Shown: positions 2,214 through 54,667, numbered from the stretch's first letter. The stretch: 64,000 nucleotides of DNA from Cyanophora paradoxa CCMP329 (GCA_004431415.1 QPMI01000038.1:1-64000), one strand, 5' to 3'. Notes: a model not told the origin generated them from the sequence alone. Made by a program: numbers and translations.

Positions 2214-2229
2214 CTTACTATAATAGATT

Positions 2230-31698: not shown

Positions 31699-31984
31699 CA
31701 CACATAGTAAAATGCGGAGTTTTAACCCTCGGCTTAATCTTAATTGATTTTGTTGATATATCTCGTATATTCTATTTCAATCAATCGATAATCTGTGTAT
31801 ATCTTATCGAATTTTCATTTATTTCGATTATTTTGTATTCTTTTCGATATTTTATCGTAAATTTCTCTTATTTTCCGATTAGTCTTACTGAGTTAATCGA
31901 TAATCTGTATATATTTCCGAATAATATAACTGAATCTCAATTAGATCTTGCCTCTGGTTAAAACTCCGCATTTTACTATGTGTG
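31699..31984. repeat. Terminal fold-back of copy B: perfect 29-bp inverted repeat around a 228-bp AT-rich spacer
   Basis: CACACATAGTAAAATGCGGAGTTTTAACC (31699-31727) and its reverse complement (31956-31984). Confidence 0.95.
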
Positions 31985-32237
31985 ATTGGTCTAAAAGTTA
32001 ATTGATTTAATCGATATTATATTCATGTACTTTCTCGATTAAATTTAATTAAATTTAATTCATTTAATCGGAAACATATCGCTAAACTCGATTAAGATCC
32101 ATAAATGATTCATTTGTTTATATTAACAAATCGATCTCTTATTGAATTCAATCGTAATTATACATGAAACTTATATGATTTTATCATTGTTTTGTTGAGT
32201 CTAAGGGGGGACCCTTAGGTTTTTTTGAAATAATTGG

Positions 32238-32527
32238 GTGTGACAGGTGTGACAGGTCCATCCAAAACTTTTGATAGTTCATTTTTAGGTTATTGAAAAG
32301 TTTGGGATAGACCTGTCACACCTGTCACACACACCATATTCAGTAAGATCCTCTTTTATAATGAAAAATTCAGTAACAATAAGTAAGAAGTTTATCTATG
32401 TAATTCTACTTAAATAAACAAATGAAATAATCGAGTGTGACAGGTGTGACAGGTCCATCCCAAACTTTTGAAAGTTCATTTTTATGCTATAGAAAACTTT
32501 GGGATAGACCTGTCACACCTGTCACAC
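32238..32527. repeat. Two subterminal palindromic units built from TGTGACAGG 9-mers
   Basis: GTGTGACAGGTGTGACAGGTC...GACCTGTCACACCTGTCACAC at 32238-32330 and 32435-32527. Confidence 0.95.
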
Positions 32528-32996
32528 AAACCATATTCAGTAAGGACCTCATATATTGTGAAAATCTCAGTGTTAGTTGGTGTAGTTGATTCAAAAAATG
32601 CATTTTATACTCTGATTCATTGTTATTTCCTGTGAAATTTGAGTCAACTCAACCCACTTAGTCAACCCTTGCATTGAATTCGTAACAAAATCCATATACT
32701 ATTACTACTTTTACGATTAATATGAGTCAACCTTGAGTCCACTTTAATATAAATATTATATAATAGGGGGATTCTAGGGGAATGTTGAGTTTGACATTGC
32801 TTAATGTAGGGTGCATTCATATTTTGGCTACATCATACAGTAGAATTCTATCGAAAAAATGTTTGGAATCCGAAAACTAATCATTGTAGAAAGCTATTGT
32901 AGTAAAAGGATATATTATGTCCTTTTGTAACAGTAGCTGATCAATGTTATTGTTAGAAAACAAAGGAATCCTTTCAAAACTCATTATAGAAAACCA

Positions 32997-33395
32997 TTAA
33001 AACGGAAATCTATCATGTTTATGTCTTTCAGTCTTCTCAAATGTGAGGAAATTCATTGTTTTATCGATCTCATCTGCAACTGATTGTGTTTTATGCTGAG
33101 CTTCTTTACCACAACTGAATATATCAATTGCTAACATGCCTTCATTGGAATAACAATGAGCTGTACAGTGGCTTTCATCTAATAGCAGAACCAATGCAAA
33201 ACCAGGAGGTGATACTTTGCCATCAAATATCTCACAGTGTTTATGAACAATCCTAATGCCTTGTCTTAATACTGCTTGTTCAAGGGTTCCCATAATCCAA
33301 TTACCTAGGAAGCTCACATGCTCATGTCCTGTTGCAATAGCTGATTTAGCCTTGTAATCAAGCATAACATGAAAGCCTCTGTATTGAGTCTCCAT
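32997..33395 (-). CDS. speD: S-adenosylmethionine decarboxylase proenzyme (prokaryotic-type SpeD family)
   Basis: G.HVMLD, PPGF..VLLLDESHCTAHCY..G..AIDIFSCG with the pyruvoyl-forming E-SH site. Confidence 0.9.
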   Translation of the reverse strand: METQYRGFHVMLDYKAKSAIATGHEHVSFLGNWIMGTLEQAVLRQGIRIVHKHCEIFDGKVSPPGFALVLLLDESHCTAHCYSNEGMLAIDIFSCGKEAQHKTQSVADEIDKTMNFLTFEKTERHKHDRFPF

Positions 33396-33424
33396 TAAGA
33401 ATACCTTAGAAAAATTAATTAAAC

Positions 33425-33697
33425 CTAATCGAACCTAATGCAAACATCCCTATACTCTACTCTTATTGATGAAGTAGCCCTTTTCCTATGTGCTTGACTT
33501 TTTCTTTTATTACAGTCCCTACACCCTGATCCCTTCACATGATTAAAGGGATATGTTAGGATCACCTTGTTACACTGCAAACATCTAACAGATACTTTCT
33601 CTTGAGCTTTGATGTAATGTGTCTCACTGTAATCGAATTTATCTTTACCATGGACTGTCATAGCAGCATCAATAAACTTTTTTGTTTTACTATCCAT
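33425..33697 (-). CDS. DUF723/CapR-like Zn-binding protein
   Basis: FI..A..VHG..KFDYS...Y.....KV.V.C..C......P.NH..G.GC..C pattern, common in phages and giant viruses. Confidence 0.7.
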   Translation of the reverse strand: MDSKTKKFIDAAMTVHGKDKFDYSETHYIKAQEKVSVRCLQCNKVILTYPFNHVKGSGCRDCNKRKSQAHRKRATSSIRVEYRDVCIRFD

Positions 33698-33719
33698 ACT
33701 CTATATATAACCAATATTC

Positions 33720-34553
33720 TTATGGAGCAGTATCCTGCCCGAAAATGGGGAAATATCGATTTGTCCCATAGTATTCAGCATAGGTATTCTGCTTTGCAAT
33801 AAAATCGGTTCTCTCTGCAAACATCACACACTTGTAGATACCAAACTTGGTGGCTCTCACAAGAAACTGATAGTCTTCCAAACCGAAATTGACTCCATGA
33901 TAAGCAATTCCGAAATTGTCATATGGGGTGATCACAACTGCAAAGTTGGGAGTTCCACCTTCAACTTGGCATACAGCATAAACATCTGGTGGGATATCCA
34001 CAACTACCTTGTAGTGGTCACCAATTTCAACAAGAGAGTCTACTACTGCTGTTTGTTCATTCACAACAATTGGGAATATCTTTATAATGTATGGGGCATT
34101 CATGCTGGGGACATAGGTTCGAATTCTTGTGTTGGGATCAATGGGATTGGGTTGATCATTCACAAATAGAGGCGCTCCAACAGCCCCACCAACCCTAAGA
34201 CCATCACCAATATAAGCTCCCCCCGATTTGCAGTTAATAGCTCCCGACCTAGATTCAAAAGAATAAGTAGACAGAGGATCTCCATAGCTATCTGGGTCTC
34301 CATAATGAGCAGAAAAGTTTGCATTTGTGACAAGTAGCTTAGTTGTCTTAACTATTCCATTATTTTTATCACATCTGAGTTCTTGTAATCTCAGCTTGTG
34401 GGTGGAACCAAAGGTGTTCATTGTAGGTTGGACCTCTGTGGATTGGAGACCTTCCACATCATCAAAGGTAGCATGTTGCAGAACATGGTTTGCTGGTGCA
34501 GCTAATGAAAGCTGAGGTGTAATTATTCGTTCAAGTGGGGGTTGCTCAGCCAT
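33720..34553 (-). CDS. Putative virion protein, shared N-terminal module family
   Basis: LSLAAPANH..H...D...GLQSTE..F....LR..ELRCDKNNG.VKTT module; near-identical ortholog at 43619..44449. Confidence 0.75.
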   Translation of the reverse strand: MAEQPPLERIITPQLSLAAPANHVLQHATFDDVEGLQSTEVQPTMNTFGSTHKLRLQELRCDKNNGIVKTTKLLVTNANFSAHYGDPDSYGDPLSTYSFESRSGAINCKSGGAYIGDGLRVGGAVGAPLFVNDQPNPIDPNTRIRTYVPSMNAPYIIKIFPIVVNEQTAVVDSLVEIGDHYKVVVDIPPDVYAVCQVEGGTPNFAVVITPYDNFGIAYHGVNFGLEDYQFLVRATKFGIYKCVMFAERTDFIAKQNTYAEYYGTNRYFPIFGQDTAP

Positions 34554-34576
34554 TTTACATTAAAGGGATATATCTT

Positions 34577-35431
34577 TTATGGGGTTGGGTCATCAATCAC
34601 ATCTGGTTCCATGTAAAATCCTGTTGTGAATATATCAGCAACATTTACACCACGAAGTGCTGATACAGCTGCTATATCTGTTCTCAGTCCCATAATCATA
34701 GTATTGTATACTCCAACCTCAGTGACAAACAGATCATAGGTAAATGTCAAATTGTTATAAACACAATATCCTCTGCCAAAATGGTTCGAAGCTTGAACAA
34801 AGAATAAGTAGTTGTGACCTGGTTGATTATTATTGGCTCTACACATGGAAAGCATTGAAGTGGGAAGAGGAATATTTCTTCTTACTCGATCAGTTCCTGT
34901 AATGGAAACTAATTCCGAATTCTCAAGAGTTACAGAGGATGCAACATAGAAATGCAAAAAAGGTTGCTGTGCAACAGGTGTGTAGAAACGAATTCGTTGT
35001 GGGTTCTCAGCATTTTGCTCTAGAGTATCTGGGACATCATTGTAGGAAACAGATGAAGATAGCTGACCTGAAACTCTGCAGCCTCCACCAATAAAAGCTC
35101 CTCCTGATCTCACAGTAACAGCTGCAGAATTCTTATCGAAATCAAGGGCTTTCAGATCAACACTGTAAGCATCAGGACCTCCATTAGTAGGTTGGAAAAA
35201 GTTAGCATTTGTGACAAGAAGTCGAGTTGTTTTCACCACACCTGAGTTCTTATCAGCTCTCAGCTCTTTAACTCGAATAATCGAATTCTTATCAAAGGAG
35301 TTACCATTGGAATTGGGTCTCTCTGTGGATTCTAAACCACGAACCTCATCATTAACTTCATGCTGGCGAAAGTGCATTGCAGGGGATCCAAGGGAATATA
35401 TTGGAAGTTGAACTCGATTATATTCACCCAT
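34577..35431 (-). CDS. Putative virion protein, shared N-terminal module family (likely start MGEYNR)
   Basis: Same module (IRVKELRADKNSGVVKTT); ortholog at 44473..45327. Confidence 0.75.
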   Translation of the reverse strand: MGEYNRVQLPIYSLGSPAMHFRQHEVNDEVRGLESTERPNSNGNSFDKNSIIRVKELRADKNSGVVKTTRLLVTNANFFQPTNGGPDAYSVDLKALDFDKNSAAVTVRSGGAFIGGGCRVSGQLSSSVSYNDVPDTLEQNAENPQRIRFYTPVAQQPFLHFYVASSVTLENSELVSITGTDRVRRNIPLPTSMLSMCRANNNQPGHNYLFFVQASNHFGRGYCVYNNLTFTYDLFVTEVGVYNTMIMGLRTDIAAVSALRGVNVADIFTTGFYMEPDVIDDPTP

Positions 35432-35470
35432 TGCTTCTTTTACTAAAAAGGAAAGAAAAATAAACTGCAA

Positions 35471-35776
35471 TCAAGCCAAAGTGATTAAATTCGATCCAAG
35501 GGATTGGTAGGCAACTGAAAGTGTTTGAAGGTTAGATGTCATTGCTTTGATGTTGTTATCACATTCAGTGTATTTAGCTACAGGGTCACCATATGCAGAT
35601 TTGGCAAGGACATTAACCAAGAGGTTTTTATACTCATTTACAACTGGTGAGAGCTTGTTAGTTTGCTGAATCGTCTTTTCAACTGTTTGTAATGCGTTTA
35701 CAAGGGTGATTGTATCAAAAGAAAGCGCAACTGGCTCAGTAGAATAGGTGGTTCCACCAAGAGGATAGGTCGCCAT
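35471..35776 (-). CDS. Hypothetical helical protein downstream of the S74 fibre
   Basis: 101-aa ORF tightly packed between viral genes. Confidence 0.55.
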   Translation of the reverse strand: MATYPLGGTTYSTEPVALSFDTITLVNALQTVEKTIQQTNKLSPVVNEYKNLLVNVLAKSAYGDPVAKYTECDNNIKAMTSNLQTLSVAYQSLGSNLITLA

Positions 35777-35779
35777 TTA

Positions 35780-38700
35780 TTATACTTTGACATTTTTAAT
35801 TTGGTCTATTTGATCCTGTAGATCTTTGCATTTTTGGGACAACTCCTTCACAGCTTCAATGAGAACTGGAATTAAACCTGTGTATTCAAGAGATAGGTAG
35901 CCATCGTCTTTTTTAACATTAACTACCTCTGGTATTACCTTTTGAACATCTTGTGCAATTAAACCTAATTTAACTCCATCTTTTTCACTTCCAATTCGTT
36001 TAAAACTCACTCCCTCTAATTTCTCTATTGCTGAAAGAGCGCCGGATATCTTTTTAATATCGGTTTTGTATCTTATGTCACTTCCTTGTGTTAAATAACC
36101 TCCAATCCACATCCATCCTCCATGATACATGTAACAAATATCAGTATCTTGTTCATTTCGGAATACAAGGGGAATATCTCCCCCTCCTTTCAAATATGTA
36201 GAAGTTTGGTTACCGAAATGGATACGATTATATCCATCACTTGAACTAAACCAAGTCCCCACAGATCCTGTTAAGATATTTGGTTTACTATAAACGTTAT
36301 TCCAATGAATATAGCCGGTGTGACCACCATAACTATTTCCTACCCAAATTTTCATGTAACTAATACCCATAATATGAACTCTTCCAATCTTTGGTCTAAT
36401 CCGAATAGTGAGGAATCTATTTCCAAGATGTATTGGAACATTATTTAAACCACTGTGGTTACCATCAGGCGATGTGGCGTATGGTTGATAACTATTCACT
36501 GATGTAATAAAAACTTCATTCCCTTGTCTATTAACTCCCCAAATTTCAAAAAGTCGTGAGTTAGTCCAAGGTAAATAGGTTAAAAATGCTGTTCCTGTGT
36601 GGTATCCATCGGGTATATCGAAGTCAATCCAAGCGGTAGAAGTTTCGTCATCAGATTGATTATTATGGACATATGAACCATAATTATAATATGGATCCCA
36701 TGCTGTACTCCATGCCCATGTCCAACCCTCAGAACATCTATTAAATGCAATACCTCCTACTGTTTTATCTGCTGTGTGAAACTTTGGGACATCATTACCG
36801 TTTATTTGGAGTTTGGTAGTAGCATTAATAGTGGGTGCTGTAATAGTGTTATTCACCCAAAAGTTACCATTACCATATGATTTTAAGATTGCTGCATTCG
36901 CTGAGTTTCTAAATTCGACAGATACACCATCGCCATTTTCATAGCCTCGAATATATGTAGTTTGACCATTTCCAAACCAAATTCGCTCGACTGCATCTAC
37001 TGATTTTAACCATGCATTTGTTGCCCATGTTGCGGTTTGTGGAAGGTCTGCGGCTGAGTAAAATGATGGTTTACTAAATATATTATCCCAAGAGATCATC
37101 CCAACCTCATTATCTGTTGCCCTCTGTCTACTCCACCAAAAACACCTGTAAGATGGATTCTACCTTTTCGACCTTGAACATATATTTTTGTGTAAAACTC
37201 ACAGTTAATAGAGATGAAAAGTATACTGGATTGTGTTCCATCATGTACTGATGCTTGAATACCTTGATAAACATTTAAACGCCGAAGGAAATGTTGATTA
37301 CCATTAGCTGTTTGACCATAGATGTCAAAATATCTACAATTAGACCAACACATGGTTTGAATATAAAACGTTTTCATTCCTGTGGGGACATTCCACCTCA
37401 TCCAAAAAGCGCTACAATCTTCATCATTTTGTGGTGTTGTATAACATCCTGTTTGTCCGGTTCTTGGTGTCCATCCTAAGTTCCAATTATTTGCGCTTCT
37501 ATATGTCGAAACCACATCTAATTGGTCGAAATCGTAACCTTTTGGTATTGTGGTTCCACCAATTTGTAAAGTGGTAGCATTCACAGTTCCTGTTACAGTT
37601 CCACCTGTAAGAGGTAAATAATTCCCAAGAGCTGCTGTTAATTCGGTATCTGTTACAACATCTGTAAGAGCTAATTGTAATTCTGTATTTGTTACATAAT
37701 CTTTGTTTTCTAAATAATCATCTGTAACAACACCAGAGAGGGTCTCATTGTGTAAGTTTTTTGCTGCCATCCTCTGATTGACTTCTAAGGCTCCTCCTGC
37801 TAATGTTTTAATCCAGGACATTTCGCATTTCCCATAGTTATCTGATGGTTGTCCCGCAAGTGGGACATAATTGAATTTTGGATCGACTGAATATTATTTT
37901 AGGTCTGGAGCCATCAGTTGCACTGACATCTGTTACATTTACTTGCATAATGGCATCCTTGTCATCATATGCTGCTGGATCAGATGGGAGAGGTGGTAAT
38001 CCTGATGTCAATGGGATGTCCTCATTATAATAACTTGTTAAGAAGATGCCTGGTTTGGTATCAATCACCCCAACACCACCTGCTGAAATCATTTGGATTC
38101 TTGTTGGTTGTTTGATGTATAATTCACCTTCCATTGTGGTCCCTGCATCAATGCCTTTTCGATTGACATAATAATCATTTAGTTGTAGCCTTTCAGGTAT
38201 GGTATTACTCTGGTAGAGACTCACACCATTTGTAAAGTCTGTCAAAATATTGCCTGATGATGCAAAAGTTGGTTGTTCATCTATTTGACTCCAAGGGTGT
38301 CTGTGGTTGCTATTGGTTATTGTTGAGTAATCATGAGTGTGTGAATCAGGTGGGAAGGTTAATGGAGGATTTGTGATATGCTCCCATAAATGAGTATGGG
38401 CGAAATCTGTGATCTGATCTTTGGTGTGAGTATGTGCGAAATCTGTTATTTGGTCTTTTGTGTGAGTATGGGCGAAATCTGTGATCTGATCTTTGGTGTG
38501 AGTATGTGCGAAATCTGTTATTTGGTCTTTTGTGTGAGTATGGGCGAAATCTGTTATTTGGTCTTTTGTGTGAGTATGGGCGAAATCTGTTATTTGGTCT
38601 TTTGTGTGAGTATGGGCGAAATCTGTTATTTGGTCTTTTGTGTGAGTATGGGCGAAATCTGTTATTTGGTCTTTTGTGTGAGTATGGGCAAAATCTGTTA

Positions 38701-40282
38701 TTTGGTCTTTTGTGTGAGTATGGGCAAAATCTGTTATTTGGTCTTTTGTGTGAGTATGGGCAAAATCTGTAATCTGGGCTTTTGTGTGAGTGTGATTTTG
38801 AATCCAACCTTGAACCACATTAGAGGTTGGATGATGTGGTAAATTTGCATTGCTTGTAACTGTAAGGTAATCTATTACAGTATCAGGTGAGGTTATTTTT
38901 AATCCTCTGTAAATATTCAGAGTCTGGGTATGAGTGAATCCATATTTTTGTTGAATGTAATACCTCACAGCATTCTTTTCAGAAGTTGTCAAAGCCCTAT
39001 TGAAAACAATCAACTCGGAAATACCACCATTCACAATATTACCAAATCCGAAATGATTGACAGTATTATCTGGTAGATAATTTGTTCCTACAAGTGTTTC
39101 AATATCTACTCCATTTAACCCGACTGTGTAGCTGCTGGAAGTAATTGTTTGGTCAGTGTAATACCATGTATTTATTAAAGAAGGAACCGTAATAACTGGG
39201 CGGGTTTGGGATGCTCCATTAATAGTGAACTGGTTCATTCCAATAGCAGTAGAAGATGTTGCCCCATAATAACAATATCGTGATGGAAAGGCGCTTCTGT
39301 AAAGTCTCAAGTGAACTTGCATAGAAGAGGCAGTTGGATGATATTTTCCCACAAAGAAAAATGTAAGCCCATTTGAGAAATCAATAGTTCTTGCAGCAGA
39401 GGTATATGCATAAAAAGTGCCTGTTGGGTTTGAAACACTAACTTGGTTGTTGATTTCGGGATTGGTGTAATAGGAACTGGCTCCGGAGATAAACAAGTCT
39501 GGAACAACTGAATTCGGGACTCTGCTTACTATAGTTGTATACATTGCTGATTGACCTGGTACTCCTGATGCCTTCCAAGCAAAAATGCAGTTCGAGATAT
39601 TTGATGCTGGATCAAAGCTTGGTGGGACATCATACCATTCTTCGTAAACCTGATTCATGGTATTGAAATTGCAAGAGCCAATTGTGAGGATTCCATTTAC
39701 TTTCAAATTGCTGGTCTCTATATTGCTACTGTAAATATTACTATTAACTGTGAGGTTTCCTGTGATTGTCCCACCCACAAGAGGGAGATATTTGGATAGT
39801 TCTGCTGCAAGTTCAGCTTCTGTAATAAATTGATCAAGCATAGCAAGGGTTACAAAATTAACAAGGATTACTGCAGTAAGGTAATCCTCTGTGACCACTC
39901 TCGAAATATTTTCGTTGTGTATGTTTTTTGCAGCCATCCTCTGATTGGCTTCCAGAACCCCACCATAATCTGTTTTAATCCATGCAAGCTCTGCCCTCCC
40001 ATAATTATCATTTGCAGTTCCCACTATGGGAATGTAGGAATATTTATCTCTGCTGAATACTATCATTGGTCTTGAGCCATCTAAACTGCTTACATCTGCT
40101 ACATGAACCTGTATAGCAGAGTTGAAATTTTGGTAGGTTGCTGGGTCTGTTGGGACTCTGAATGTATCTGTGGGAATGTCAGCCTCCATGTAGCTTGACA
40201 CAAAGATATTTGGTATGGTTGCTCCTGGTTCAGGTGGTGGATCATAAGAGCCTGGTAATGTCCTAATATGAAGTGGTCCTCT
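35780..40282 (-). pseudogene. Large fibre gene (LamG-like domain, HxH repeats, C-terminal peptidase S74 intramolecular chaperone); 5'-truncated, two frameshifts
   Basis: ORFs 37838..40357, 37096..37821 and 35780..37099 join through single-base indels in A/T runs (~37878, ~37140), restoring collinearity with 8377..11889. SDIRYKTDI..GLIAQDVQKVIPEVV..LEYTGLIPVLIEAVKEL is S74. ISELIVFNRALT..E...V..Y...KYG is LamG-like. Confidence 0.8.
38391..38795. repeat. 36-bp coding tandem repeat x11 (HTHTKDQITDFA)
   Basis: The TGAGT(A/G)TG anchor spans 38391 to 38787, which is 11 x 36 bp. Confidence 0.97.
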
Positions 40283-41469
40283 CACTGGGAGCCAGAAATT
40301 AAGTTTACCATATGGTAAACTTAGGGGGTGGTAAAGGTGTGCCGTTTGCGTTACCACACGGTAAAGTCAGGGTGGTAAAGTCAGGGTGGTAAAGTTGGGG
40401 TGGTAAAGTCAGGGTGGTAAAGTTGGGGTGGTAAAGTCAGGGTGGTAAAGTCAGAGTTACATCCTGCTGCTTTCCCATATCCATGCCAGCGCTGTTTTTC
40501 CGTGCATGCTGATATATATATTACATGCAATTCACATCTTCCTCGCTAGCTACGTATACTGCGCATGCAGAGCTAGCTATAGCTCGCGCTGCATCGCTGC
40601 AGCGCCTATAGCTAGCTAAAGGCGCGACACACAGCTGGACCTGGGGGCGTGCAAAGGCGATGGCCATGGTCAGCTCAAGCTTTGGATGTACAGCGATTGC
40701 ATTGAGAGCGATAGAGGGGACAGCGCAGGTTATCACCTATGGGCCCAGCCGGCAGCCCCGCCTGCTCGCTCACCTTCGAGCAGCAAGGCCGCCGGCAGAC
40801 CCCACTGCTTGCTCACTTCAAGCAGCAGGGCCGGCCAACTGCAAATAGCGTGCTTTCAAAAAGGAAGGGTGCACAGACCTCTAGATCTTCGATTCTAGAT
40901 GAGAATGCTCTTGACAGCTCTGCGGGAGACAATACAGGCAGTGGTCAGCTGCATATCGATGCATATGAGAAAGAGGATCGGAAATCGCAATCTAACGCCT
41001 ACGGGCCCAGCCGGCAGCCCCGCCTGCTCGCTCACCTTCGAGCAGCAAGGCCGCCGGCAGACCCCACTGCTTGCTCACTTCAAGCAGCAGGGCCGGCCAA
41101 CTGCAAATAGCGTGCTTTCAAAAAGGAAGGGTGCACAGACCTCTAGATCTTCGATTCTAGATGAGAATGCTCTTGACAGCTCTGCGGGAGACAATACAGG
41201 CAGTGGTCAGCTGCAGATCGATGCATATGAGAATGAGGATCTGAAATCGCAATCTAACGCCTACGGACCCAACCGGCAGCCCCGCCTGCTCGCTCACCTT
41301 CGAGCAGCAAGGCCGCCGGCAGACCCCACTGCTTGCTCACTTCAAGCAGCAGGGCCGGCCAACTGCAAATAGCGTGCTTTCAAAAAGGAAGGGTGCACAG
41401 ACCTCTAGATCTTCGATTCTAGATGAGAATGCTCTTGACAGCTCTGCGGGAGACAATACAGGCAGCGGT
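40283..41469. mobile_element. Probable CACTA/EnSpm-type element end inserted in the copy B fibre gene
   Basis: Starts with CACTG where fibre homology to copy C ends. It has a 24-bp palindrome TAAGTTTACCATATGGTAAACTTA (40300-40323) and seven 14-bp subterminal repeats GGTAAAGT(CA/TG)GGGT (40360-40454). The other end is not seen. Confidence 0.5.
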
Positions 41470-41471
41470 CA
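40736..41471. repeat. 262-bp tandem repeat, ~2.8 units, third unit cut by virus copy C
   Basis: CCTA(T/C)GG(G/A)CCCA at 40736, 40998 and 41260. Confidence 0.95.
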
Positions 41472-41565
41472 CACATATTGAAAAACGAATTTAAATCCCT
41501 CGTTCATCTCGATCGCTTCGCGATCTCGATTCACTCTGGATTTAAATTCGTTTTTCAATATGTGT
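41471..41565. repeat. Terminal fold-back of copy C: perfect 28-bp inverted repeat, 39-bp spacer
   Basis: ACACATATTGAAAAACGAATTTAAATCC (41471-41498) and its reverse complement (41538-41565). Confidence 0.95.
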
Positions 41566-41884: not shown

Positions 41885-42675
41885 GCAAAAAGTGTCACAT
41901 AGTTGCATTATGTCCAATTAAACAATCGATGAGATTGCGGATGTACATTTTTGCACCCAAAAAGTGTCACAGAGTTGCATTATCTCCAATTAAACAATTG
42001 ATTAGATTGCGGGATTTTCTATTGGAATATATCGGTACTGCATTATGTCCAATTAAACAATCGATGAGATTGCTGATGTACATTTTAGATCGAAAAAGTG
42101 TCACAGAGTTGAATGGTCTCCAATTGAACAATCGATTAGATTCCATATGTTCTATAAAACATAATAAATGAATTCAAGTGTGACAGGTAGTATTCAAATG
42201 ATATTCAGTAAGAGATATATTTGTTTTTGATAAAGTCAGTAAGAGGGGTAGAATGTCTGTGACAGGTGTGACAGGTGTGACAGGTGTTTTCAAAAGTCTG
42301 TCATTTTTGAAAAATTTAAAAAGTTTGAAAATAGGTGTCACACCTGTCACACCTGTCACACTCAATTAAACTACCTGTCACACCCGATCTCCTTACCATT
42401 TTCAGTAAGCCGGAAAGGTATTCATGAAATCGACTATTGTTGGGTGGATTTTGAAGGTGTCACACCTGTCACATAGACTGTTTTCAGTAAGACAACAATA
42501 AATTCTTGAAAATCTCAGTAATAAATAGAGTCTTTTGTTAATTGGGTGTGACGGGTGTGACAGGTGTGACAGGTGTTTTCAGAAGTCAGTAATTTTTGGA
42601 GAATTTTAAAAAGTTTGAAAATAGGTGTCACACCTGTCACAGGCGTCACAGTCAATTAAATAGGTGTCACACCCG
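41885..42675. repeat. Subterminal repeats of copy C: degenerate direct repeats, then two TGTGACAGG palindromic units
   Basis: TCCAATTAAACAAT-containing units occur about four times (41885-42140). (TGTGACAGG)3...(CCTGTCACA)n lies at 42258-42384 and 42547-42675. Confidence 0.9.
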
Positions 42676-42730
42676 ATTATCTGACCATTTTCAGTAAGAC
42701 CATCTGAAATTCTGAATTTTTCAGTGTCAA

Positions 42731-43132
42731 CTAACTCGGAAATCGCAATACTCTATGTTTCTCCGATTTCTCCAACCCTGAAAACACACCTGTTATTCTC
42801 TCATCTATCTCATGAGATACTCTCGTGGTTTTTCTTTCTGCTTCTAATCCACAACTGAATATATCAATCGCCAACATACCTTCATTTGAGTAACAATGAG
42901 CAGTGCAATGGCTCTCATCCAGCAGAAGAACCATTGCAAAACCAGGAGGAGAAATACCACCATCGAAAATCTCGCAATGCTTGTGAACTACTCGAATACC
43001 TTGCTCTTGAATAATAGTTTGCAAGAACTGCATTAACCAACTGGTTGTTGTCTCCAATTCCTCCATTCCTACTGCTAATTGGGTTCTGAATTTGTAATCC
43101 AGCATCACATGGAAGCCTCGATGAGTATTCAT
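42731..43132 (-). CDS. speD: S-adenosylmethionine decarboxylase proenzyme (SpeD family)
   Basis: GFHVMLD..PPGFAMVLLLDESHCTAHCYSNEGMLAIDIFSCG. Confidence 0.9.
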   Translation of the reverse strand: MNTHRGFHVMLDYKFRTQLAVGMEELETTTSWLMQFLQTIIQEQGIRVVHKHCEIFDGGISPPGFAMVLLLDESHCTAHCYSNEGMLAIDIFSCGLEAERKTTRVSHEIDERITGVFSGLEKSEKHRVLRFPS

Positions 43133-43172
43133 TTATGAATAATTTAGAAAAATTAAAAACGCGATTGGTAGA

Positions 43173-43322
43173 ATGCGAACCATCTTAGCAAGAGTGCTAC
43201 CTTATGAGTTGGTGGATATCATCCTGCTGCATTACCATAAGACCTGTCCAAACTGTTTTGATACATGCATAATCACGAAGGGAAAATGGGGAAAGATCCT
43301 CATTTCTCTCTCAAAGATCTAA
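43173..43322 (+). CDS. 49-aa micro-ORF with an F-box-like start and CxxC
   Basis: Translated by hand: MRTILARVLPYELVDIILLHYHKTCPNCFDTCIITKGKWGKILISLSKI. It fills the gap between speD and the Zn gene and is absent from copy B. Confidence 0.45.
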   Translation: MRTILARVLPYELVDIILLHYHKTCPNCFDTCIITKGKWGKILISLSKI

Positions 43323-43591
43323 TCAAAGTACAGTACCACTGGTTTATCATCTATCACAATTCCTGATGTCGTCTTTTTTCTATATGCATGAGAGGATTTC
43401 TTGTTGCATTCTCTGCATCCACTTCCCCTTACATGATTAAATGGGTATGTTTGGAGGATCTTGTTGCATTTAAGGCATCTAACAGAGACCTTCTCTTGCG
43501 CTTTCTTATAGACTGTCTCACTATAATCGAATTTAGAATCACCATGAACCATCATTGCAGATTCTATGAATTTCTTTGTTTTATCATCCAT
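43319..43591 (-). CDS. DUF723/CapR-like Zn-binding protein
   Basis: Ortholog of 33425..33697. Confidence 0.7.
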   Translation of the reverse strand: MDDKTKKFIESAMMVHGDSKFDYSETVYKKAQEKVSVRCLKCNKILQTYPFNHVRGSGCRECNKKSSHAYRKKTTSGIVIDDKPVVLYFD

Positions 43592-43618
43592 CCCTCTCTC
43601 TATATATACCTGAGATTT

Positions 43619-44449
43619 CTATGGAGCAGTATCCTGCCCGAAAATGGGGAAGTAGCGATTTGTGCCGTAATATTCTGCATATGTATTCTGTTTTGCAATA
43701 GCATCGGTTCTCTCAGCATAGAGAATGCATTTGTAGATACCAAACCTGGTGGCTCTCACCAAGAACTGGTAATCTTCAAGACCGAAATTCACTCCATGAT
43801 AAGCAATTCCGAAATTGTCATATGGGGTGATCACAACTGCAATATTTGGGGTTCCACCTTCCACTTGACAGACAGCATAAACATCTGGTGGAATATCCAC
43901 GACCACCTTGTAGTGGTCACCAATCTCAACAAGAGAATCAACTACTGATGTCTGTTCATTCACAACAATTGGGAAGATCTTGATAATATATGGTGCATTC
44001 ATACTGGGGACATAGGTGCGAATTCTGGTGTTGGGATCAATGGGATTGGGTTGATCATTTACGAAAAGAGGCGCACCAACAGCTCCACCAACCCGAAGAC
44101 CATCACCAATATATGCTCCCCCCGTTTTGCAGTTAATAGCTCCCGACCGAGATTCAAAAGAGTAAGTAGAAAGAGGATCACCATAACTGTCTGGGTCTCC
44201 ATAATGGGCAGAAAAGTTTGCATTGGTGACAAGGAGTTTCGTTGTCTTAACTATACCATTATTTTTATCACATCTGAGTTCCTGCAATCTCAGTTTGTGG
44301 GTGGAACCAAATGTATTCATTGTGGGTTGCACTTCTGTGGATTGGAGACCTTCTACATCATCAAAGGTAGCATGCTGCAAAACGTGATTTGCAGGTGCTG
44401 CTAATGAGAGTTGGGGTGTAATAATTCGTTCTGGTATTGGGGCAGCCAT
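43619..44449 (-). CDS. Putative virion protein, shared N-terminal module family
   Basis: Ortholog of 33720..34553. Confidence 0.75.
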   Translation of the reverse strand: MAAPIPERIITPQLSLAAPANHVLQHATFDDVEGLQSTEVQPTMNTFGSTHKLRLQELRCDKNNGIVKTTKLLVTNANFSAHYGDPDSYGDPLSTYSFESRSGAINCKTGGAYIGDGLRVGGAVGAPLFVNDQPNPIDPNTRIRTYVPSMNAPYIIKIFPIVVNEQTSVVDSLVEIGDHYKVVVDIPPDVYAVCQVEGGTPNIAVVITPYDNFGIAYHGVNFGLEDYQFLVRATRFGIYKCILYAERTDAIAKQNTYAEYYGTNRYFPIFGQDTAP

Positions 44450-44472
44450 TTTACATTAAAGTGATATATAAT

Positions 44473-45327
44473 TTATGGGGTTGGGTCATCAATCACATCT
44501 GGTTCCTGGTAAAACCCTGTTGTGAAGATATCTGCAACGTTTACCCCTCGAAGTGCCGAAACAGCTGCTATATCTGTCCTCAGTCCCATAATCATAGTAT
44601 TGTAAACTCCAACCTCAGTTACAAACAAATCATAGGTAAATGTCAAATTGTTATAAACACAATATCCTCGACCGAAATGGTTTGATGCTTGAACAAAGAA
44701 TAGGTAATTATGACCTGTTTGATTGTTGTTTGCTCTGCACATAGATAGCATTGCTGTGGGAAGCGGAATATTTCTTCTTACTCGATCAGTTCCTGTTATA
44801 ATAACCAATTCCGAATTTTCAAGAGTGACAGAGGAAGCAACATAGAAATGTAGAAAAGGTTGCTGTGCAACTGGTGTATAGAAACGTATTCGTTGGGGAT
44901 TCTCTACATTTTGTTCAAGAGTATCTGGGACATCATTATACGAAACTGATGAAGAGAGTTGTCCTGAAACACGACAACCACCACCAATAAATGCTCCTCC
45001 TGATCTCACAGTAACAGCAGCAGAATTCTTATCGAAATCAAGGGCTTTCAGATCAACACTGTAAGCATCAGGACCTCCATTAGTAGGTTGGAAGAAATTC
45101 GCATTTGAGACAAGGAGCCGAGTTGTTTTAACCACACCAGAATTCTTGTCTGCTCTCAGTTCTTTAACTCGAATAATCGAATTCTTATCAAAGGAGTTAC
45201 CATTGGAATTGGGTCTCTCTGTGGATTCTAAACCACGAACTTCATCATTCACTTCATGCTGGCGAAAGTGCATTGCTGGGGATCCAAGGGAATATATGGG
45301 AAGTTGAACTCGATTATATTCACCCAT
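44473..45327 (-). CDS. Putative virion protein, shared N-terminal module family
   Basis: Ortholog of 34577..35431. Confidence 0.75.
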   Translation of the reverse strand: MGEYNRVQLPIYSLGSPAMHFRQHEVNDEVRGLESTERPNSNGNSFDKNSIIRVKELRADKNSGVVKTTRLLVSNANFFQPTNGGPDAYSVDLKALDFDKNSAAVTVRSGGAFIGGGCRVSGQLSSSVSYNDVPDTLEQNVENPQRIRFYTPVAQQPFLHFYVASSVTLENSELVIITGTDRVRRNIPLPTAMLSMCRANNNQTGHNYLFFVQASNHFGRGYCVYNNLTFTYDLFVTEVGVYNTMIMGLRTDIAAVSALRGVNVADIFTTGFYQEPDVIDDPTP

Positions 45328-45365
45328 TGCTTCTTTTACTAAGAAGGAAAGAAAAATAATGTTCA

Positions 45366-45629
45366 CTACTCTTCTGTGACATTGTTATACTCAATAGCGC
45401 GTTTTACAGTTCCCCTTTGGAATGCCTGTAATACAATGGCTTCCTTTGAGGTTGGTATCTGAACTGCACCTGAGATGCAAGATTGAATCTCTTTCTGAAC
45501 AATCTCATCAATTGCAATTCTTGCTCTGTTGTGGGCAGCATTATCAATCCAATCCTGAACAGAAGCAGAGCAATATTCCATTCCCAAATTTTCAGTATCT
45601 GAGAGAATGACTTGGTAGATATTCGACAT
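45366..45629 (-). CDS. Small protein paired with C1q fibres
   Basis: Homolog of 12965..13225. Confidence 0.7.
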   Translation of the reverse strand: MSNIYQVILSDTENLGMEYCSASVQDWIDNAAHNRARIAIDEIVQKEIQSCISGAVQIPTSKEAIVLQAFQRGTVKRAIEYNNVTEE

Positions 45630-45651
45630 TCCTTAATCTACTACAAGAAAA

Positions 45652-46671
45652 TTAAACGATGCTAATCAATTCACCCGAAAGACCTGTTATACTTGAATAT
45701 GAACCAGAGGAGCTTGTGACCAGTGTCACATACTCATTTTGAGCAAGATTTAGAATGCAAGAGAAACACAATGCTTTATTGGTGTGTGTGCTGCTGTGGA
45801 TTTGGGAAATGCTTAAACCCCCAGGATCTGCATCATTCACTTTTATAAATAATTCGATAGTAGCTGATGTGGTCGAAAAAGAGAACACTGAAAATCGATA
45901 GTGTCCTGCAACAGGTGCTGTAAATCTTCCTGTTGATGTGCTAAATGCATTGGTATTGTTAACCCGAACTGTTGCCCAGTTTATCAGAGCAGCAGCAGAA
46001 GTAGCAGTGTGAGCATATCCAAGTTGAACTGAAAATCGTGGATGTGACGTTTTAAGATAGCATCCTTCATTTACTGTCAAACTATTGGCTTCAAGAGTAG
46101 CAACAGTGTTACTATTTCGTTTTAACAAAAAATTGACATCGGCTCCTGTATCAATTTCAGGAGAGACAACCTTAGTAGATGCTGTGATTATTGATTGTGT
46201 GTAGTTAGGAATACTTATACCAGCATTTGCTGTAACCAAACCTGTAAATGTGCTTGTTCCTGTAATGTTTACTTGATTTGCTGTAAGGGTTCCATCAATC
46301 ATTGCCCCATCTCCAATATAAGCGCCTCCACTTTTTACTACAAGAGCTGAGTTATTGATGGTGTTGTCAAAAGTAACAATCTTTGGTGTGGTGAACCCTC
46401 CCACATCATCATAAATTGCTGAATCTGATACAATCTGACCTGATTGAACTTGGTTCTTGTTTGAAACTATTAAACCTGTGGTTCTCACCCTCCCTCCATT
46501 TCGATCACATCGAATTTCTTTGCATCTGATCACAGAATGTTGAGAGAATGAATCGGCTCCTATGGTCTCTGTGCAAATGAAACCTGGGGTAGCATCTGTT
46601 ACTGTATGGTTGAGTTGATGCAATTTCGGCGCTGCATAACAGAAAACAGGGACAGCTATTTGAGTGGTCAT
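45652..46671 (-). CDS. C1q-domain fibre protein with shared N-terminal module
   Basis: HPRFSV..INW..V.VN...FSTSTGRFTAPVAGHYRFS..LNLAQNEYV..SGELI. Confidence 0.85.
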   Translation of the reverse strand: MTTQIAVPVFCYAAPKLHQLNHTVTDATPGFICTETIGADSFSQHSVIRCKEIRCDRNGGRVRTTGLIVSNKNQVQSGQIVSDSAIYDDVGGFTTPKIVTFDNTINNSALVVKSGGAYIGDGAMIDGTLTANQVNITGTSTFTGLVTANAGISIPNYTQSIITASTKVVSPEIDTGADVNFLLKRNSNTVATLEANSLTVNEGCYLKTSHPRFSVQLGYAHTATSAAALINWATVRVNNTNAFSTSTGRFTAPVAGHYRFSVFSFSTTSATIELFIKVNDADPGGLSISQIHSSTHTNKALCFSCILNLAQNEYVTLVTSSSGSYSSITGLSGELISIV

Positions 46672-46693
46672 ACTTTACATTATGTGGATAATA

Positions 46694-47764
46694 TTATGAT
46701 GAATGGACAAGGATACATCCAAAAAAGTATCTGATATTGTAGTTTACACCAGCATCTCCGGAATTGACCAGCCTGATCGAATCATTAGCTACAAGGTTCA
46801 CAATAATATCAAAACCAACAGTTGCATTTCCTGTTGCATTTTGAGAGTTAGAGTTAATTCCGAATGTTGTCCCATTTTTAAGCAAAGAGGTCAAATAAGT
46901 ATTGCTCTTAGCAGAATTGTAACCAGACGCATGGAAAAATACGAGGTAGTTTCCAGAAACAGGTGCAGTAAAACTTCCTGTTGCAGGATCGAAATTATTT
47001 CCATGGTTGACTATGACTCCTGTTGATGAGAACAAAGTTGTTCCACTTGCAGCGAAGTTTGTATCTTTTGAAGTATTGGGCGCTTGTTTTGTTGCAAAGA
47101 AACGAGGATGACTACTTAATTTGAGATACTTGTCTGTCGGAAGTGTAAGGAGCTGAACAGTTGTATTATCTGTTTGAGTTGTCTTTCCAAGAGAAAATAC
47201 TGTATTTCCATTTCGTTTGTAGTTCACATTTGCGTCTGTCCCATTATCTGTCTCAGGTGTGTTTATTCTTGTAGTAGCTGTGATAGTTTGATACTGAAAG
47301 TTGCCTGAGAGACCACCATTAAAGTTCATCAATCCTGTGAATACACTTGTCCCACTCACATTTAATTGGTTTGCTGTAACAGTTCCTGCTACATTTGCTC
47401 CATCTCCAATGTAGGCACCACCACTCTTCACCACAAGAGCGGAATTATTACTTGTGTTACCAAAAGTAAATATCTGAGCTGTGGTAAATCCACCTACATT
47501 ATCATATATTGCTGAATCTGGGACTACTTGACCTGCTTGAACTTGGTTTTTATTCGAGATTATAATGCCTGTGGTTCTAATCTTACCATTATTGCGATCA
47601 CATCGAATTTCTTTGAATCTGAGTATAGTATTCTCTGTGAAAGAGGTATTGCTTGTGGTTTCAGTGCAAATATACCCAGGGGTTGAATCAACTACTCCAT
47701 GAGAGGTGCTGTGTAGTGATTTGGCTGCAAGTTCATAGTTTGGGATTTCTAATAGAGAGGTCAT
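46694..47764 (-). CDS. C1q-domain fibre protein with shared N-terminal module
   Basis: HPRFFA..VNHGNNFDPATGSFTAPVSGNYLVFF..LLKNG..VNLVANDSI..FFGCILV. Confidence 0.85.
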   Translation of the reverse strand: MTSLLEIPNYELAAKSLHSTSHGVVDSTPGYICTETTSNTSFTENTILRFKEIRCDRNNGKIRTTGIIISNKNQVQAGQVVPDSAIYDNVGGFTTAQIFTFGNTSNNSALVVKSGGAYIGDGANVAGTVTANQLNVSGTSVFTGLMNFNGGLSGNFQYQTITATTRINTPETDNGTDANVNYKRNGNTVFSLGKTTQTDNTTVQLLTLPTDKYLKLSSHPRFFATKQAPNTSKDTNFAASGTTLFSSTGVIVNHGNNFDPATGSFTAPVSGNYLVFFHASGYNSAKSNTYLTSLLKNGTTFGINSNSQNATGNATVGFDIIVNLVANDSIRLVNSGDAGVNYNIRYFFGCILVHSS

Positions 47765-47789
47765 CTTTGTAATAGTGTGAGAATCTTTA

Positions 47790-50700
47790 TTATGCTGATG
47801 CTATCCCATGGATTGCAATTTGAAGCCACTGTGGTTGAATGGTTACCCATCCTGCTGCCCAAATAACAAGATTGATTGTGGTAGAGGTTGTTGAGTTGCT
47901 TGATATTCCTATTTTATAATCGATTTCCACATTTGTTGCAGGTAGTCCCTGCAATGTTACAACAACAGATGGAGCAGATGCAAAGGCAGGACTCCAATTT
48001 AATGTAATGCTATGGTTTTGCCTTGCTGAACTGCCCCCAATTTGAGGATTCGCAATTGTCATTTCATGTCTCCCTTTTCTAATCAGGTTATCAAGCATGT
48101 ATTGAGGAGCCAGCTTAGTAACCTTTGAATTGTCCCGAGGATCCATGACCCACATTTCTCTTGCATATGCATTTCCACGAACAAGTAGGGTTTTATCCTG
48201 ATAGTAAGATATAGAGTTAGTAGAAAGGGTTGAATTGTGGAAATTCCAAATAACAGGAGGATCAGGCATAATATATGGGTCATAATCGAGAAAGTAACCT
48301 GATCCAATGAGAAGGTTTGCATTTGCAGTGATATTATTTGCTGTAAAGGGATCGAGGGTGGGTTTATTGGTCAGGTCATTGTAGTTGCCCGAAAATAAAG
48401 CGGGTTTGTTATAGATATCTGTATTCCAATCATGAGTATGTGCAAAATCTGTAATATCTGCTTTGACATGAGTGTGAGCAAAATCTGTAATCTCACTCTT
48501 GACATGAGTGTGTGCAAAATCTGTAATCTCACTCTTGACATGAGTGTGTGCAAAATCTGTAATCTGTGACTTTGTGTGAGTGTGTGCGAAATCTGTGATT
48601 TCAGATTTAAAATGAGTGTGAGCGAAATTCGTAATATCTGCTCTTGTGTGGGTGTGTGCAAAATCTGTTATCTGGGATTTTGTGTGAGTGTGTGCGAAAT
48701 CTGTGATCTCTGCTCTTGTGTGGGTATGTGCTCGATTATTCAGATCAAGGAAGCTACCTGAATATGCAACAGGGTGTAGATTAGATGGGGTGGGTTTATT
48801 AATGAGATCATTATAATCTCCTGTGAAAGATATGATTTTCAGTTCACCCCTTCCAACATAATCGGAAGGGAGGTCAATCTTAATGGGCATGATAGCTGGA
48901 TCATCAGGTATCTCATACTCACCTCCTGGATGTACAACTGGGAATGTTTGATTGCTTTCAGTATGAACAAAGAAGTTGCATGCTGTTACTGTTCCATCAA
49001 TTACCCCACCTGTGAGAGGGAGGTAATCTCCTGTCACACCAATGTTTATACCTGCAATGATTGTATTAAGTTCTGTTTCATCTATGTAGTTTTGGGCTTG
49101 CAGGTAATCCTCTGTAACCACTCTTGAAATGGTCTCATTGTGAATATTCTTTGCAGCCATCCTCTGATTGGCTTCCAGAACCCCACCATAATTTGTTTTG
49201 ATCCATGCAAGCTCTGCCCTCCCATAGTTATCATTTGCAGTTCCCACTATGGGAATATAGGAGTATTTATCTCGACTGAAAACTATCATTGGTCTTGATC
49301 CATCCAGACTGCTCACATCTGCAACATGAACCTGTATAGCTGCATTGTAATTTTGGTAGGTTGCTGGGTCTGTTGGAACTCTAAAAGTATCTGTGGGTAT
49401 GTCAACCTCCATGTAGCTTGACACAAAGATATTTGGTATGGTTGCTCCTGGTTCTGGTGGTGGATTATAAGAGCCTGGTAATGTTCTAATATGCAATGGT
49501 CCTATCATAGCTGAATTTGCAAGTGTCCCTTCCACATGAACATAGTGGTGATTCAAAAAGATCCTTTCAGGGACATTGCAAGTCTGGTAAAGAGAAACTC
49601 CCAGAGTAGCAAGAGGCTCTACTTTTGCGAATTCTGGTTGGTCATTGATCTCATCCCAGGTGTGTTCATGTTTGCTTGGTGGAAACTCAGTTGGTATTCC
49701 ATCAATGTCACCCCAATCATGCCTGTGATCCTCTGGTGGGAATTTCGCTGGTTTCCCTAAGATCTCATCCCAGTCATGGTTGTGATCCTCTGGTGGAAAT
49801 CTGGCTGGTTTGTTATTGATCTGCTCCCAATCTGGAAAGAACTCCCAAATCTCTGGGCGAAATCCATCTGGTAATAATTCTTCATGGGGTTCATAAGGTT
49901 GCTCATAGTCAACCACTGGTGGTTCGTGACCATCTGCTAAGTATTCCTCATGGGGTTCATAATTCTGCTCATATTCATACTCTTGTGGATCTAAACCATC
50001 TGGTAAATACTCTTCCTCATTGGGATCATATTGATCATATTCATACTCTTGTGGGTCGAAACCATCAGGTAGGTATTCCTCCTCATCTGGAACGAATTGG
50101 TATTCGTCAAGCTCCAAAATATCAATTTCAGGAGGTAAATATTGCTCATCAATTTGCTTTCTTGGTTCAATTATCGGTTTATTTCGAACCTGCTCCCAAC
50201 TCACAATGTGTTGCCCAAAAGGAACTGTCTCATCTGCTGTGTACTCTCTTCCTGGTTGCTTTTTCGGTGTTAAATCTGGTGGATCCCAAGGAAGAGGGAA
50301 GGGAACTGGGACAGGTCCATAATATTCAAAGATCTCTCTGATGGTCTTCTCACTTACAAGTTTCTCACCATTTGCATAGACATTGCTTCCATGGATATTT
50401 CGCCATTGCCTGGTTCTGATACCAAGATCTTTGGTGTTGGTTACCAGAGGTAAAAGGTGCCTGTCCATTTCGACAAGGTCTGGGTGTAAATGAATTGTTA
50501 CTGGTTGAGTGGGGCTACTGTTGACAGTGACAGACGCCTTATTCTTTGCTGTATCACCAGGTAGTTGGAAACCGAATTGTGCATTAGAAGCCGAATTCGC
50601 CACAATATCTCTTGGATAAACATTGTTAGTGAACTCGATTTTGTTGGTTTCTCCATGGGGGGCTATCTGTAATATTTCGGGAATTTGTGCAATTGCATTT

Positions 50701-50834
50701 GATCCTTCATTATAGATTCTTAAACCACTCTGATGCCCACCCTTCTCATTTTGAACATTGAATATTAACCTACCACTATCGAATCGAGTTGGAATATCTG
50801 GGTGGGTTCCACTGGTTTTCAGTTTGAAACTCAT
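47790..50834 (-). CDS. Tail-fibre-like protein (acidic repeats, HxH repeats, H-lectin/gp53-like C-terminus)
   Basis: The N-terminus resembles 4617..8339 (FD.GRL.F.VQ.E.G). It has EEYLPDG.DPQEYEY repeats, eight HTHxxxxITxFA units and a C-terminal WSPAFASAPSVVVT. Confidence 0.8.
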   Translation of the reverse strand: MSFKLKTSGTHPDIPTRFDSGRLIFNVQNEKGGHQSGLRIYNEGSNAIAQIPEILQIAPHGETNKIEFTNNVYPRDIVANSASNAQFGFQLPGDTAKNKASVTVNSSPTQPVTIHLHPDLVEMDRHLLPLVTNTKDLGIRTRQWRNIHGSNVYANGEKLVSEKTIREIFEYYGPVPVPFPLPWDPPDLTPKKQPGREYTADETVPFGQHIVSWEQVRNKPIIEPRKQIDEQYLPPEIDILELDEYQFVPDEEEYLPDGFDPQEYEYDQYDPNEEEYLPDGLDPQEYEYEQNYEPHEEYLADGHEPPVVDYEQPYEPHEELLPDGFRPEIWEFFPDWEQINNKPARFPPEDHNHDWDEILGKPAKFPPEDHRHDWGDIDGIPTEFPPSKHEHTWDEINDQPEFAKVEPLATLGVSLYQTCNVPERIFLNHHYVHVEGTLANSAMIGPLHIRTLPGSYNPPPEPGATIPNIFVSSYMEVDIPTDTFRVPTDPATYQNYNAAIQVHVADVSSLDGSRPMIVFSRDKYSYIPIVGTANDNYGRAELAWIKTNYGGVLEANQRMAAKNIHNETISRVVTEDYLQAQNYIDETELNTIIAGINIGVTGDYLPLTGGVIDGTVTACNFFVHTESNQTFPVVHPGGEYEIPDDPAIMPIKIDLPSDYVGRGELKIISFTGDYNDLINKPTPSNLHPVAYSGSFLDLNNRAHTHTRAEITDFAHTHTKSQITDFAHTHTRADITNFAHTHFKSEITDFAHTHTKSQITDFAHTHVKSEITDFAHTHVKSEITDFAHTHVKADITDFAHTHDWNTDIYNKPALFSGNYNDLTNKPTLDPFTANNITANANLLIGSGYFLDYDPYIMPDPPVIWNFHNSTLSTNSISYYQDKTLLVRGNAYAREMWVMDPRDNSKVTKLAPQYMLDNLIRKGRHEMTIANPQIGGSSARQNHSITLNWSPAFASAPSVVVTLQGLPATNVEIDYKIGISSNSTTSTTINLVIWAAGWVTIQPQWLQIAIHGIASA

Positions 50835-50918
50835 CCCTGTTGTAGGTTTGCTGGATAATTGAAACTCATCCCTGTTTACTCTACTTATAGAGATTTATTA
50901 AATTTGAGTTAAGTAAAG

Positions 50919-53662: not shown

Positions 53663-54667
53663 CTATTTCCTCTGCCCACTTCGTAGATTGAATCGAGTTT
53701 GGGGTGCAGTATATGTTTCTTTGGTGGTTGAAAAGTCATTATACCACCTCTGACTGTTGACTTCTGATAATTTCTGGGTTCCTGCTATGGTCAACTTCTT
53801 TAATTCTTTCTCTACTCTACCCTTCTTTTGTGCTCTTGCTTCTGTGAGGGGTTCTTTTGGTATTTCACTTGCTTTTTCTATGCCCTCCTTTCTGATTGCT
53901 GAATCAACCCTGGCTTCCTCCTTTGCCTGTTCAAGAGCATCCACTGTGGGAGTTTCATGATACTCAACACCTTTAATGGGCAGCAGTTCATGAAAAGCGA
54001 ATCTACCATCAACTATCTCACCACTGGGACTTCTGATTCTGAACTTGAAGCCCTCTCTGCCCTCCACACTATAAACAATTCGAGACCAATTAACCCCTTG
54101 CTTTGCAAATGGATTCTTTTCAACTTTCACTCTCACAAACATTCCAGGTTTCAGGGCATCAAGATACTCAATCGATTTCTTGAATCTCTGATCCTCCATA
54201 TTCACTATCTCTTTGTAGTGGGCTTCTGTGGTCTCTGCTGGTTTTCTCTTGGTTGCAGAGTGAATGGTATTATTATAATTATACTCAATATCACCCAACA
54301 CATCAAAAAATCGTGCAGTATTATTTGCAATGCAGTAGTTTGTGATCAATCTCTTGATCTGTCTGTTAAAGGCTTCAATTCGACCTTGGGTTCTGTGATC
54401 TGCAACATCACTTAGTTGATGCTCAATGAATTTTGTTCCCAAATAATCTGTGAACAACACATTGGTAAATTCGCTTCCACTGTCACTCTGAATGCGAACA
54501 ATTGGTCTGGGGACTCTCTGTTCAAGTTGCTTGAATGCTGCAAGTGTAGTTAGAGCACTCTTGTCTCTCATTGGAATTATGAACCCAGTTCTTAGGGTTG
54601 ATTCCATTGCACTCATAAATGTATCATAACCATCATTCTGCTTTTTGTATGCAGGAAAGAAGAGCAG
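53663..54667 (-). pseudogene. Polinton-type rve (DDE) integrase, 5' part displaced by LTR insertion
   Basis: Y...NDGY..., IQSDSGSEF (2nd D), GRIEAFNRQIK (E), YNNTIHSAT..KP, G.FVRV.....F.K....WS..VY.V. The first catalytic Asp falls at the insertion junction. Confidence 0.88.

Follow-up and report, generated by a model that had tools for sequence, protein, structure and literature searches.

Imperfect, strand-biased fold-backs at the ends of integrated polinton-like elements in Cyanophora paradoxa, and their possible role as self-priming telomeres

How polinton-like viruses (PLVs) without a protein-primed polymerase copy their ends is an open question. The one preprint that we found on palindromic ends of PLVs and virophages, from Halocafeteria seosinensis, describes terminal palindromes in endogenous virophages and in PLV subtype 4, where they accompany non-pPolB replication genes and RVE; it proposes hairpin priming or accidental annealing and could not tell one from the other (bioRxiv 10.64898/2026.07.28.741278). 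Its settings were a gap of at most 10 and at most 4 mismatches, its example palindrome is 52 nt, and the words mismatch, imperfect and flip are absent from its main text. Here we analyzed the left ends of two related elements, copies B and C, integrated in a 64,000-nt stretch of Cyanophora paradoxa CCMP329 (GCA_004431415.1 QPMI01000038.1:1-64000; "the window", with coordinates on the given (+) strand). As in the Halocafeteria viruses, a palindrome lies at the very end of the element, at the host junction, the integrase is of the RVE type and no pPolB was seen; unlike theirs, the ends are 95-286 nt long, incompletely paired and strand-biased.

Vaccinia virus and Kaumoebavirus have telomeres that also lead from a perfect stem into a mismatched hairpin at the genome end, with an incompletely paired stem like those of B and C (PMC8956199, PMC7909422). 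Those are large viruses whose ends occur in two orientations, whereas B and C are small and integrated, and both of their ends have one orientation. The left-end (3') hairpin of the parvoviruses minute virus of mice and LuIII is likewise an imperfect terminal palindrome with a mismatch bubble and an extended palindromic form, and in parvovirus left ends the bubble can steer asymmetric resolution (PMC1185569). B and C differ from these in their PLV-like genes, in the absence of any Y or T shape and in that no HUH Rep/NS1 was seen. In the paper listings searched, we found no mismatched or strand-biased form of the virophage and PLV palindromes. Terminal palindromes of such viruses are already known, and it is the long, mismatched, strand-biased form that seems to be new.

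Terminal fold-backs at the host junction

Both fold-back units were positioned exactly at the junction between the host and AT-rich elements of the PLV type (GC content of 37% in B and 40% in C, versus 57% in the flanks). Copy C cut the third unit of a 262-bp host tandem repeat precisely at its outer arm, and the repeat was not resumed past its inner arm. We found no target duplication around either unit, the flanks differing at the B unit and at the C unit, and no right terminus was found within the window, even for B, which seems to stop at ~40300-40460.

A perfect-inverted-repeat scan returned 29 bp in B (31699-31727/31956-31984, with 228 nt between) and 28 bp in C (41471-41498/41538-41565, with 39 nt between). 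This bears out an earlier note on the same DNA, which had described perfect inverted repeats of 28-29 bp whose arms differ between the copies but pair perfectly, with conserved inner edges. The B and C arms differed at 9 of 28 positions, every one of them compensated, and the inner edges CC-CTCG ... CTCT-GG, common to both, form a 3x3 internal loop. The same note had both elements start with CACACATA, whose first base (C) pairs in B; in copy C, that base stays unpaired and also matches the host repeat. Because of this, and because a high-depth contig from public run X5 begins at 31700, the terminus is more likely ACACATA, with an ambiguity of 1-2 nt. Counted from ACACATA, the arms of both copies are 28 bp and end in CC. 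The pattern ACACATA-N19-CC occurred four times in the window, each time at a B or C arm, where 0.36 occurrences were expected; a search of viral contigs for the arm pattern gave one match, which on reading was coding DNA without a partner arm.

We examined 4 of 21 listed public runs, and the observations on them are among the contigs and loose ends listed, the contigs being short. The contig across the B junction (31450-31726) was identical in all 4 runs at a depth of 39-100, and depth inside the element was more than 100-fold higher. Single contigs gave 4308 inside versus 38.9 in the flank for X5 (~110x) and 5600 versus 77.8 for X1 (~72x), with the caution that read depth is a poor measure of copy number. 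Depth was still high through 32700, inside B.

Mismatch pattern, strand folding and adjacent arrays

We scored each unit as a single unbranched stem, with all mismatches treated alike, against dinucleotide shuffles. The 39-nt spacer of C formed 11 pairs and 7 mismatches (18 core positions) without a gap, around a 3-nt loop, while the 228-nt spacer of B formed 71 pairs with 33 mismatches and 14 gaps; the fold scores were attained by 0 of 500 and 0 of 60 shuffles, respectively. Compared by hand, both lie outside the near-perfect limits of the Halocafeteria preprint, an indication that ends of this kind escape palindrome searches with narrow limits on gaps and mismatches. The earlier note gave the spacer lengths correctly but missed their pairing: instead of loops, the spacers form imperfect stems that reach the tip; since the spacer pairs, the "racket" that it proposed is wrong.

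That note also proposed selection on a terminal stem. Perfect arms by themselves do not establish this, as they would be homogenised whenever a hairpin is copied through; better evidence comes from the structure of the spacer and from a compensatory change within it. The change was carried by an X5 contig (depth 477.7) with T31749C and A31933G, positions that face one another in the B stem. The same contig skips ~96 nt from 31798 to 31895, nearly symmetrically about the tip (centres 31846.5 and 31841.5), so that this variant copy combines a compensatory change within the spacer with a shorter tip. Two further listed changes in it each swap one unpaired pyrimidine for another. A deletion at 31736, which accounts for nearly all depth at that position in X1 and X5, eliminates an A.C mismatch, and a loose end in X2 carries a third version of the arm, different at 5 positions, whose partner arm was not among the pieces listed.

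The mismatches were biased between strands. On the + strand, the 40 mismatches of B and C comprised 33 pyrimidine-pyrimidine (YY), 4 purine-purine (RR) and 3 mixed; of the 14 bulged bases, 12 were pyrimidines. Nine further imperfect palindromes, chosen within or next to B and C, gave 19 YY, 24 RR and 30 mixed (Fisher p 1e-8). YY on the + strand is purine-purine on the minus strand, whose 3' end is the element's end. On the minus strand of C, 6 of the 7 mismatches fell within three GA/GA steps, two of them in a pyrimidine-GA-purine context, including one CGAG block. The outermost GA block of this stem corresponds to the conserved inner edges and is common to B. A mismatch code in favour of the 3'-ended strand speaks for a function and points to the strand concerned.

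At its tip, the C minus strand reads exactly GCGAAGC, adjoining the CGAG/CGAG block, and the score of this strand was reached by 0 of 1000 shuffles. GCGAAGC folds into a mini-hairpin of extraordinary stability (PMC13037366), and CGAG blocks give stable sheared G.A pairs (PMC10085684); elsewhere, these motifs occur in phage origins and promoters and in a human promoter (PMC13037366, PMC10085684). No report of such folds at PLV ends was found in the literature searched. For the minus strand, to which the free 3' end belongs, folding into a stable hairpin is predicted.

Just inside each end lie two inverted arrays of GTGTGACAG, which are likely, judged from their counterparts elsewhere, to be origin iterons for a primase-helicase. 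The GTGTGACAG 20-mer was present in 15 viral loci; in 9 of these, a primase/helicase gene has the arrays at its 3' end. These 9 were chosen by eye and their adjoining or overlapping open reading frame (ORF) was scanned; all had primase or helicase families, from about six lineages. Of the remaining viral loci, three look like coding repeats and three were outside the ORF scan. A phage search for the motif agreed in at least 10 of 11 records, all from one phage group. The occurrence of this motif in a eukaryotic PLV-like element and in phages suggests a widely shared origin signal. No primase-helicase gene was found in the window itself, and the iteron pattern had 0 matches in metagenome contigs. 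As an observation on the phages, inverted GTGTGACAG arrays stood at the 3' ends of unrelated primase-helicase genes in L001, L002, L003, L006, L008, L009, L011, L014 and L015.

Proposed hairpin priming and its alternatives

We consider the units to be long imperfect fold-backs that form the exact left ends of a high-copy, integrated polinton-like family, and that likely represent the opened hairpin telomere of a free linear genome, in which the 3'-ended strand is predicted to fold and to prime DNA synthesis (probability about 0.6). This reading draws on the position at the junction, the pairing of the spacer to its tip, the purine-purine mismatches on the 3'-terminal strand, the adjacent inverted arrays and the high copy number. 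It agrees with the earlier note in tying a terminal hairpin to replication, a tie that our results support.

In the proposed sequence of events, a primase-helicase from a complete element or a helper would bind the arrays and unwind the end. The 3' strand would then fold, stabilised by sheared G.A pairs and the GAA tip, while the complementary strand, with its C.T and T.T mismatches, would fold less well. Extension of the 3'-OH into the genome would give a hairpin-closed or dimer intermediate, and copying of the hairpin would keep the arms identical within an element while they drift between lineages. An RVE integrase would insert the extended (opened) form at ACACATA and might use the conserved 3x3 loop to choose a single orientation. 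More tentatively, this may be a PLV family with one-strand hairpin ends, built on sheared G.A pairs and a GAA mini-hairpin, in which a self-priming telomere of single orientation replaces protein priming and is carried intact by an RVE integrase that reads the asymmetric 3x3 loop; we hold this fuller version to be possible rather than probable.

Several observations weigh against self-priming. The pyrimidine bias of B is close to its T-skew: composition-keeping shuffles gave a YY fraction of 0.67 +/- 0.04 (maximum 0.775 of 60) versus 0.79 observed, and since the spacer is T-rich and shuffles alone reach 0.67, bias and skew in B are largely one fact. Eighteen of the B mismatches are A.A rather than G.A, there are two GA steps, and the tip pairs poorly. 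Nearest-neighbour energies hardly separate the two strands of C (-34.9 versus -33.2 kcal/mol) and give the C spacer alone a z of about -1.2 to -1.5; to our knowledge, standard energy tables are without sheared-pair terms. The change at 31894-31895, the majority form in 3 of 4 runs, merely exchanges one mismatch for another. The complete termini read number two, and their common orientation has a 1-in-2 chance. The capsid folds of the family were not confirmed (pLDDT 34 and 36), and the window yielded neither a replication gene nor a right end or target duplication.

The best-placed alternative, although one that we think improbable, is a covalently closed, incompletely paired flip/flop telomere of the poxvirus/asfarvirus type, in which the mismatches would bind a telomere or packaging protein and would not be a one-strand priming device. 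The anatomy is the same, a mismatched stem that continues from perfect arms; in vaccinia virus the mismatches act in assembly rather than in DNA synthesis (PMC8956199), the Kaumoebavirus hairpin is 102 bp, incompletely paired and flip/flop (PMC7909422), and the conserved 3x3 loop would suit a protein-binding site. In such a telomere both forms must work, which leaves unexplained why, on one strand, the mismatches should be purine-only and the tip GAA. The identical spacer orientation in 2 of 2 copies also counts against it, weakly, as does the sole joint listed among the B-end contigs, which showed no strand change in contigs so short that they bridge the arm unreliably.

We give distinctly less credence to the folded strand as a recombination or integration substrate in place of a primer. 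Folded strands are used in this way by integron attC and by the CTX phage attP, and strand-specific folding at the junction fits such a role, as does a proposal that PLV inverted repeats are recombinase substrate and origin both (PMC11296320). Here the entire palindrome is intact on the element side, however, where an internal crossover would split it. None of the 28 ORFs scanned matched a tyrosine recombinase or protelomerase family, and the sole integrase seen was RVE-like; the att-like or resolution site suggested by the earlier note found no support.

Accidental fold-back duplications from repair or integration, later decayed, seem very unlikely. They have been proposed as the alternative for the Halocafeteria palindromes, and perfect arms require no selection, but random decay predicts mainly transition-type mismatches with YY equal to RR, far from the 33, 4 and 3 counted above, and would not leave the arms untouched; moreover, the end is common to ~70-110 copies (by depth), and arm length is fixed at 28. 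Least credible are independent miniature inverted-repeat transposable elements (MITEs) located by chance at the edge of the element, an identity that we rejected: short terminal inverted repeats, high copy number and a variable interior would suit them, but neither unit has the target duplication by which the earlier note would have recognised separate MITEs, the host repeat does not continue beyond C's inner arm, and within the window both units run on without a break into homologous, equally high-depth element DNA, with its arrays and orthologous genes.

Gene content and neighbouring sequences

Features of the fold-backs, the elements and the adjoining host DNA, with coordinates in the window
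Feature	Position	Strand	Remarks
B outer arm, 28 bp (C31699 pairs too); element start	31700..31727	+	inverted-repeat scan, arm pattern, depth jump
B imperfect fold-back stem, 228 nt	31728..31955	-	minus-strand mismatches mostly A.A, with two tandem G.A steps; pairing near tip poor
B inner arm	31956..31983	+	inverted-repeat scan, arm pattern
B inverted pair of GTGTGACAG arrays, with TCAGTAAG after each array; likely origin iterons	32226..32571		repeat scan
B genes	32997..40357	-	AdoMet decarboxylase, small HNH-associated zinc-finger ORF, two ORFs with shared N-terminal domain, fibre-like ORFs
B inner 24-bp palindrome and 14-mer tandem array	40300..40460		B seems to end nearby
Host 262-bp tandem repeat	40718..41470	+	third unit interrupted by C at GGTC(A)
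C outer arm	41471..41498	+	inverted-repeat scan, arm pattern
C fold-back core	41499..41537	-	gap-free; three tandem GA/GA mismatch blocks (minus); GCGAAGC tip 41515-41521
C inner arm	41538..41565	+	inverted-repeat scan, arm pattern
C two inverted GTGTGACAG arrays	42258..42698		homologous to B arrays; comparison with B
C genes	42731..52460		orthologues of first four B ORFs (62-98% identity), fibre genes with C1q and with tail repeats, patatin
C RVE-like integrase	53663..54667	-	N-terminal part lost at GC-rich insertion ~54668
Related copy A	2..3073		probable capsid genes: frameshifted major capsid (2-1213, minus) and pentons

We take the family to be probably polinton-like, and B and C to be truncated members or members that lack capsid genes. 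An RVE or tyrosine integrase marks an endogenous PLV, and the C integrase resembles the first kind (PHROGs transposase, E 3.6e-11; Pfam rve, E 0.003, below cut-off). The nearest locus with context had an RVE adjoining a polB-like ORF, at 36%. In the one distant Polinton-like RVE match in metagenome contigs, L017, the stretch read contained no terminal hairpin; between 5437 and 10636 it carries a large polB-like ORF (labelled by eye), a small nuclease-like ORF and the RVE near the contig end. The scan of 28 ORFs gave no Pfam family of a packaging ATPase or replication gene, in elements of which A and C run off or are interrupted.

No major capsid gene was found in B or in the visible part of C. 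Copy A, a further relative that spans 1-13246 in reverse, has patatin and fibre genes too. Its frameshifted capsid-like ORF scored 0.93-0.94 in the Atlas to viral clusters, some of them Capsid_N/Capsid_NCLDV, though recognition was low; it had no Pfam or PDB match, and its model had a predicted local distance difference test (pLDDT) score of 34. The part of A at 2232-3073 has two unnamed homologues and is presumably penton, a label that we base on a C-terminal motif; the fold was not confirmed at a model pLDDT of 36. Viral contigs yielded no relatives of the 284-aa ORF, the AdoMet decarboxylase, the RVE integrase or the capsid alignment, and for the 284-aa ORF neither a homologue at E 0.001 nor a usable Atlas match was obtained.

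The fibre-like ORFs of B include Peptidase_S74 and tail repeats, and its last fibre gene is shorter than in C. Seven ORFs (33720-35431, 43619-47764 and 11945-12943) share an N-terminal domain of ~130 aa with 25 invariant alignment columns and swapped C-termini (C1q or unknown); the domain is likely a capsid-anchoring fibre module, and the one of the seven that was searched had no database homologue. Fibre genes also contain 36-bp coding repeats of the HTHTKDQITDFA type, the number of which varies among A, B and C (9262-11346, 38391-38794 and 48433-48731, respectively).

In the two copies, a palindrome cluster followed by a short tandem array lay at comparable places in the interior, at 52911-53265 in C (11-mer) and 40300-40460 in B (14-mer), the array sequences being unrelated. 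No Rfam match was found in 31600-43000. To the left of B, the host flank contains a 482-bp near-identical tandem duplication (30054-31022).

A GC-rich insertion (54668-64000) interrupts the RVE gene of C. Its first letters are TG, after which come possible primer-binding motifs and an ORF with a zinc knuckle, and it looks like a long terminal repeat (LTR)-type retroelement. Copy A is truncated by a 4044-codon non-LTR retrotransposon frame at 13247-27214, with reverse transcriptase and RNase H by Pfam and endonuclease-like motifs by eye. The frame is flanked by 1278-bp inverted repeats with an additional 110-bp copy at 27105-27214, an arrangement that may possibly reflect two insertions head to head or a fold-back duplication. 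We rejected 26487-27214 as a third terminus: the 508 nt between its 110-bp arms were unfolded, with a score of 48 versus 58 for 10 shuffles.

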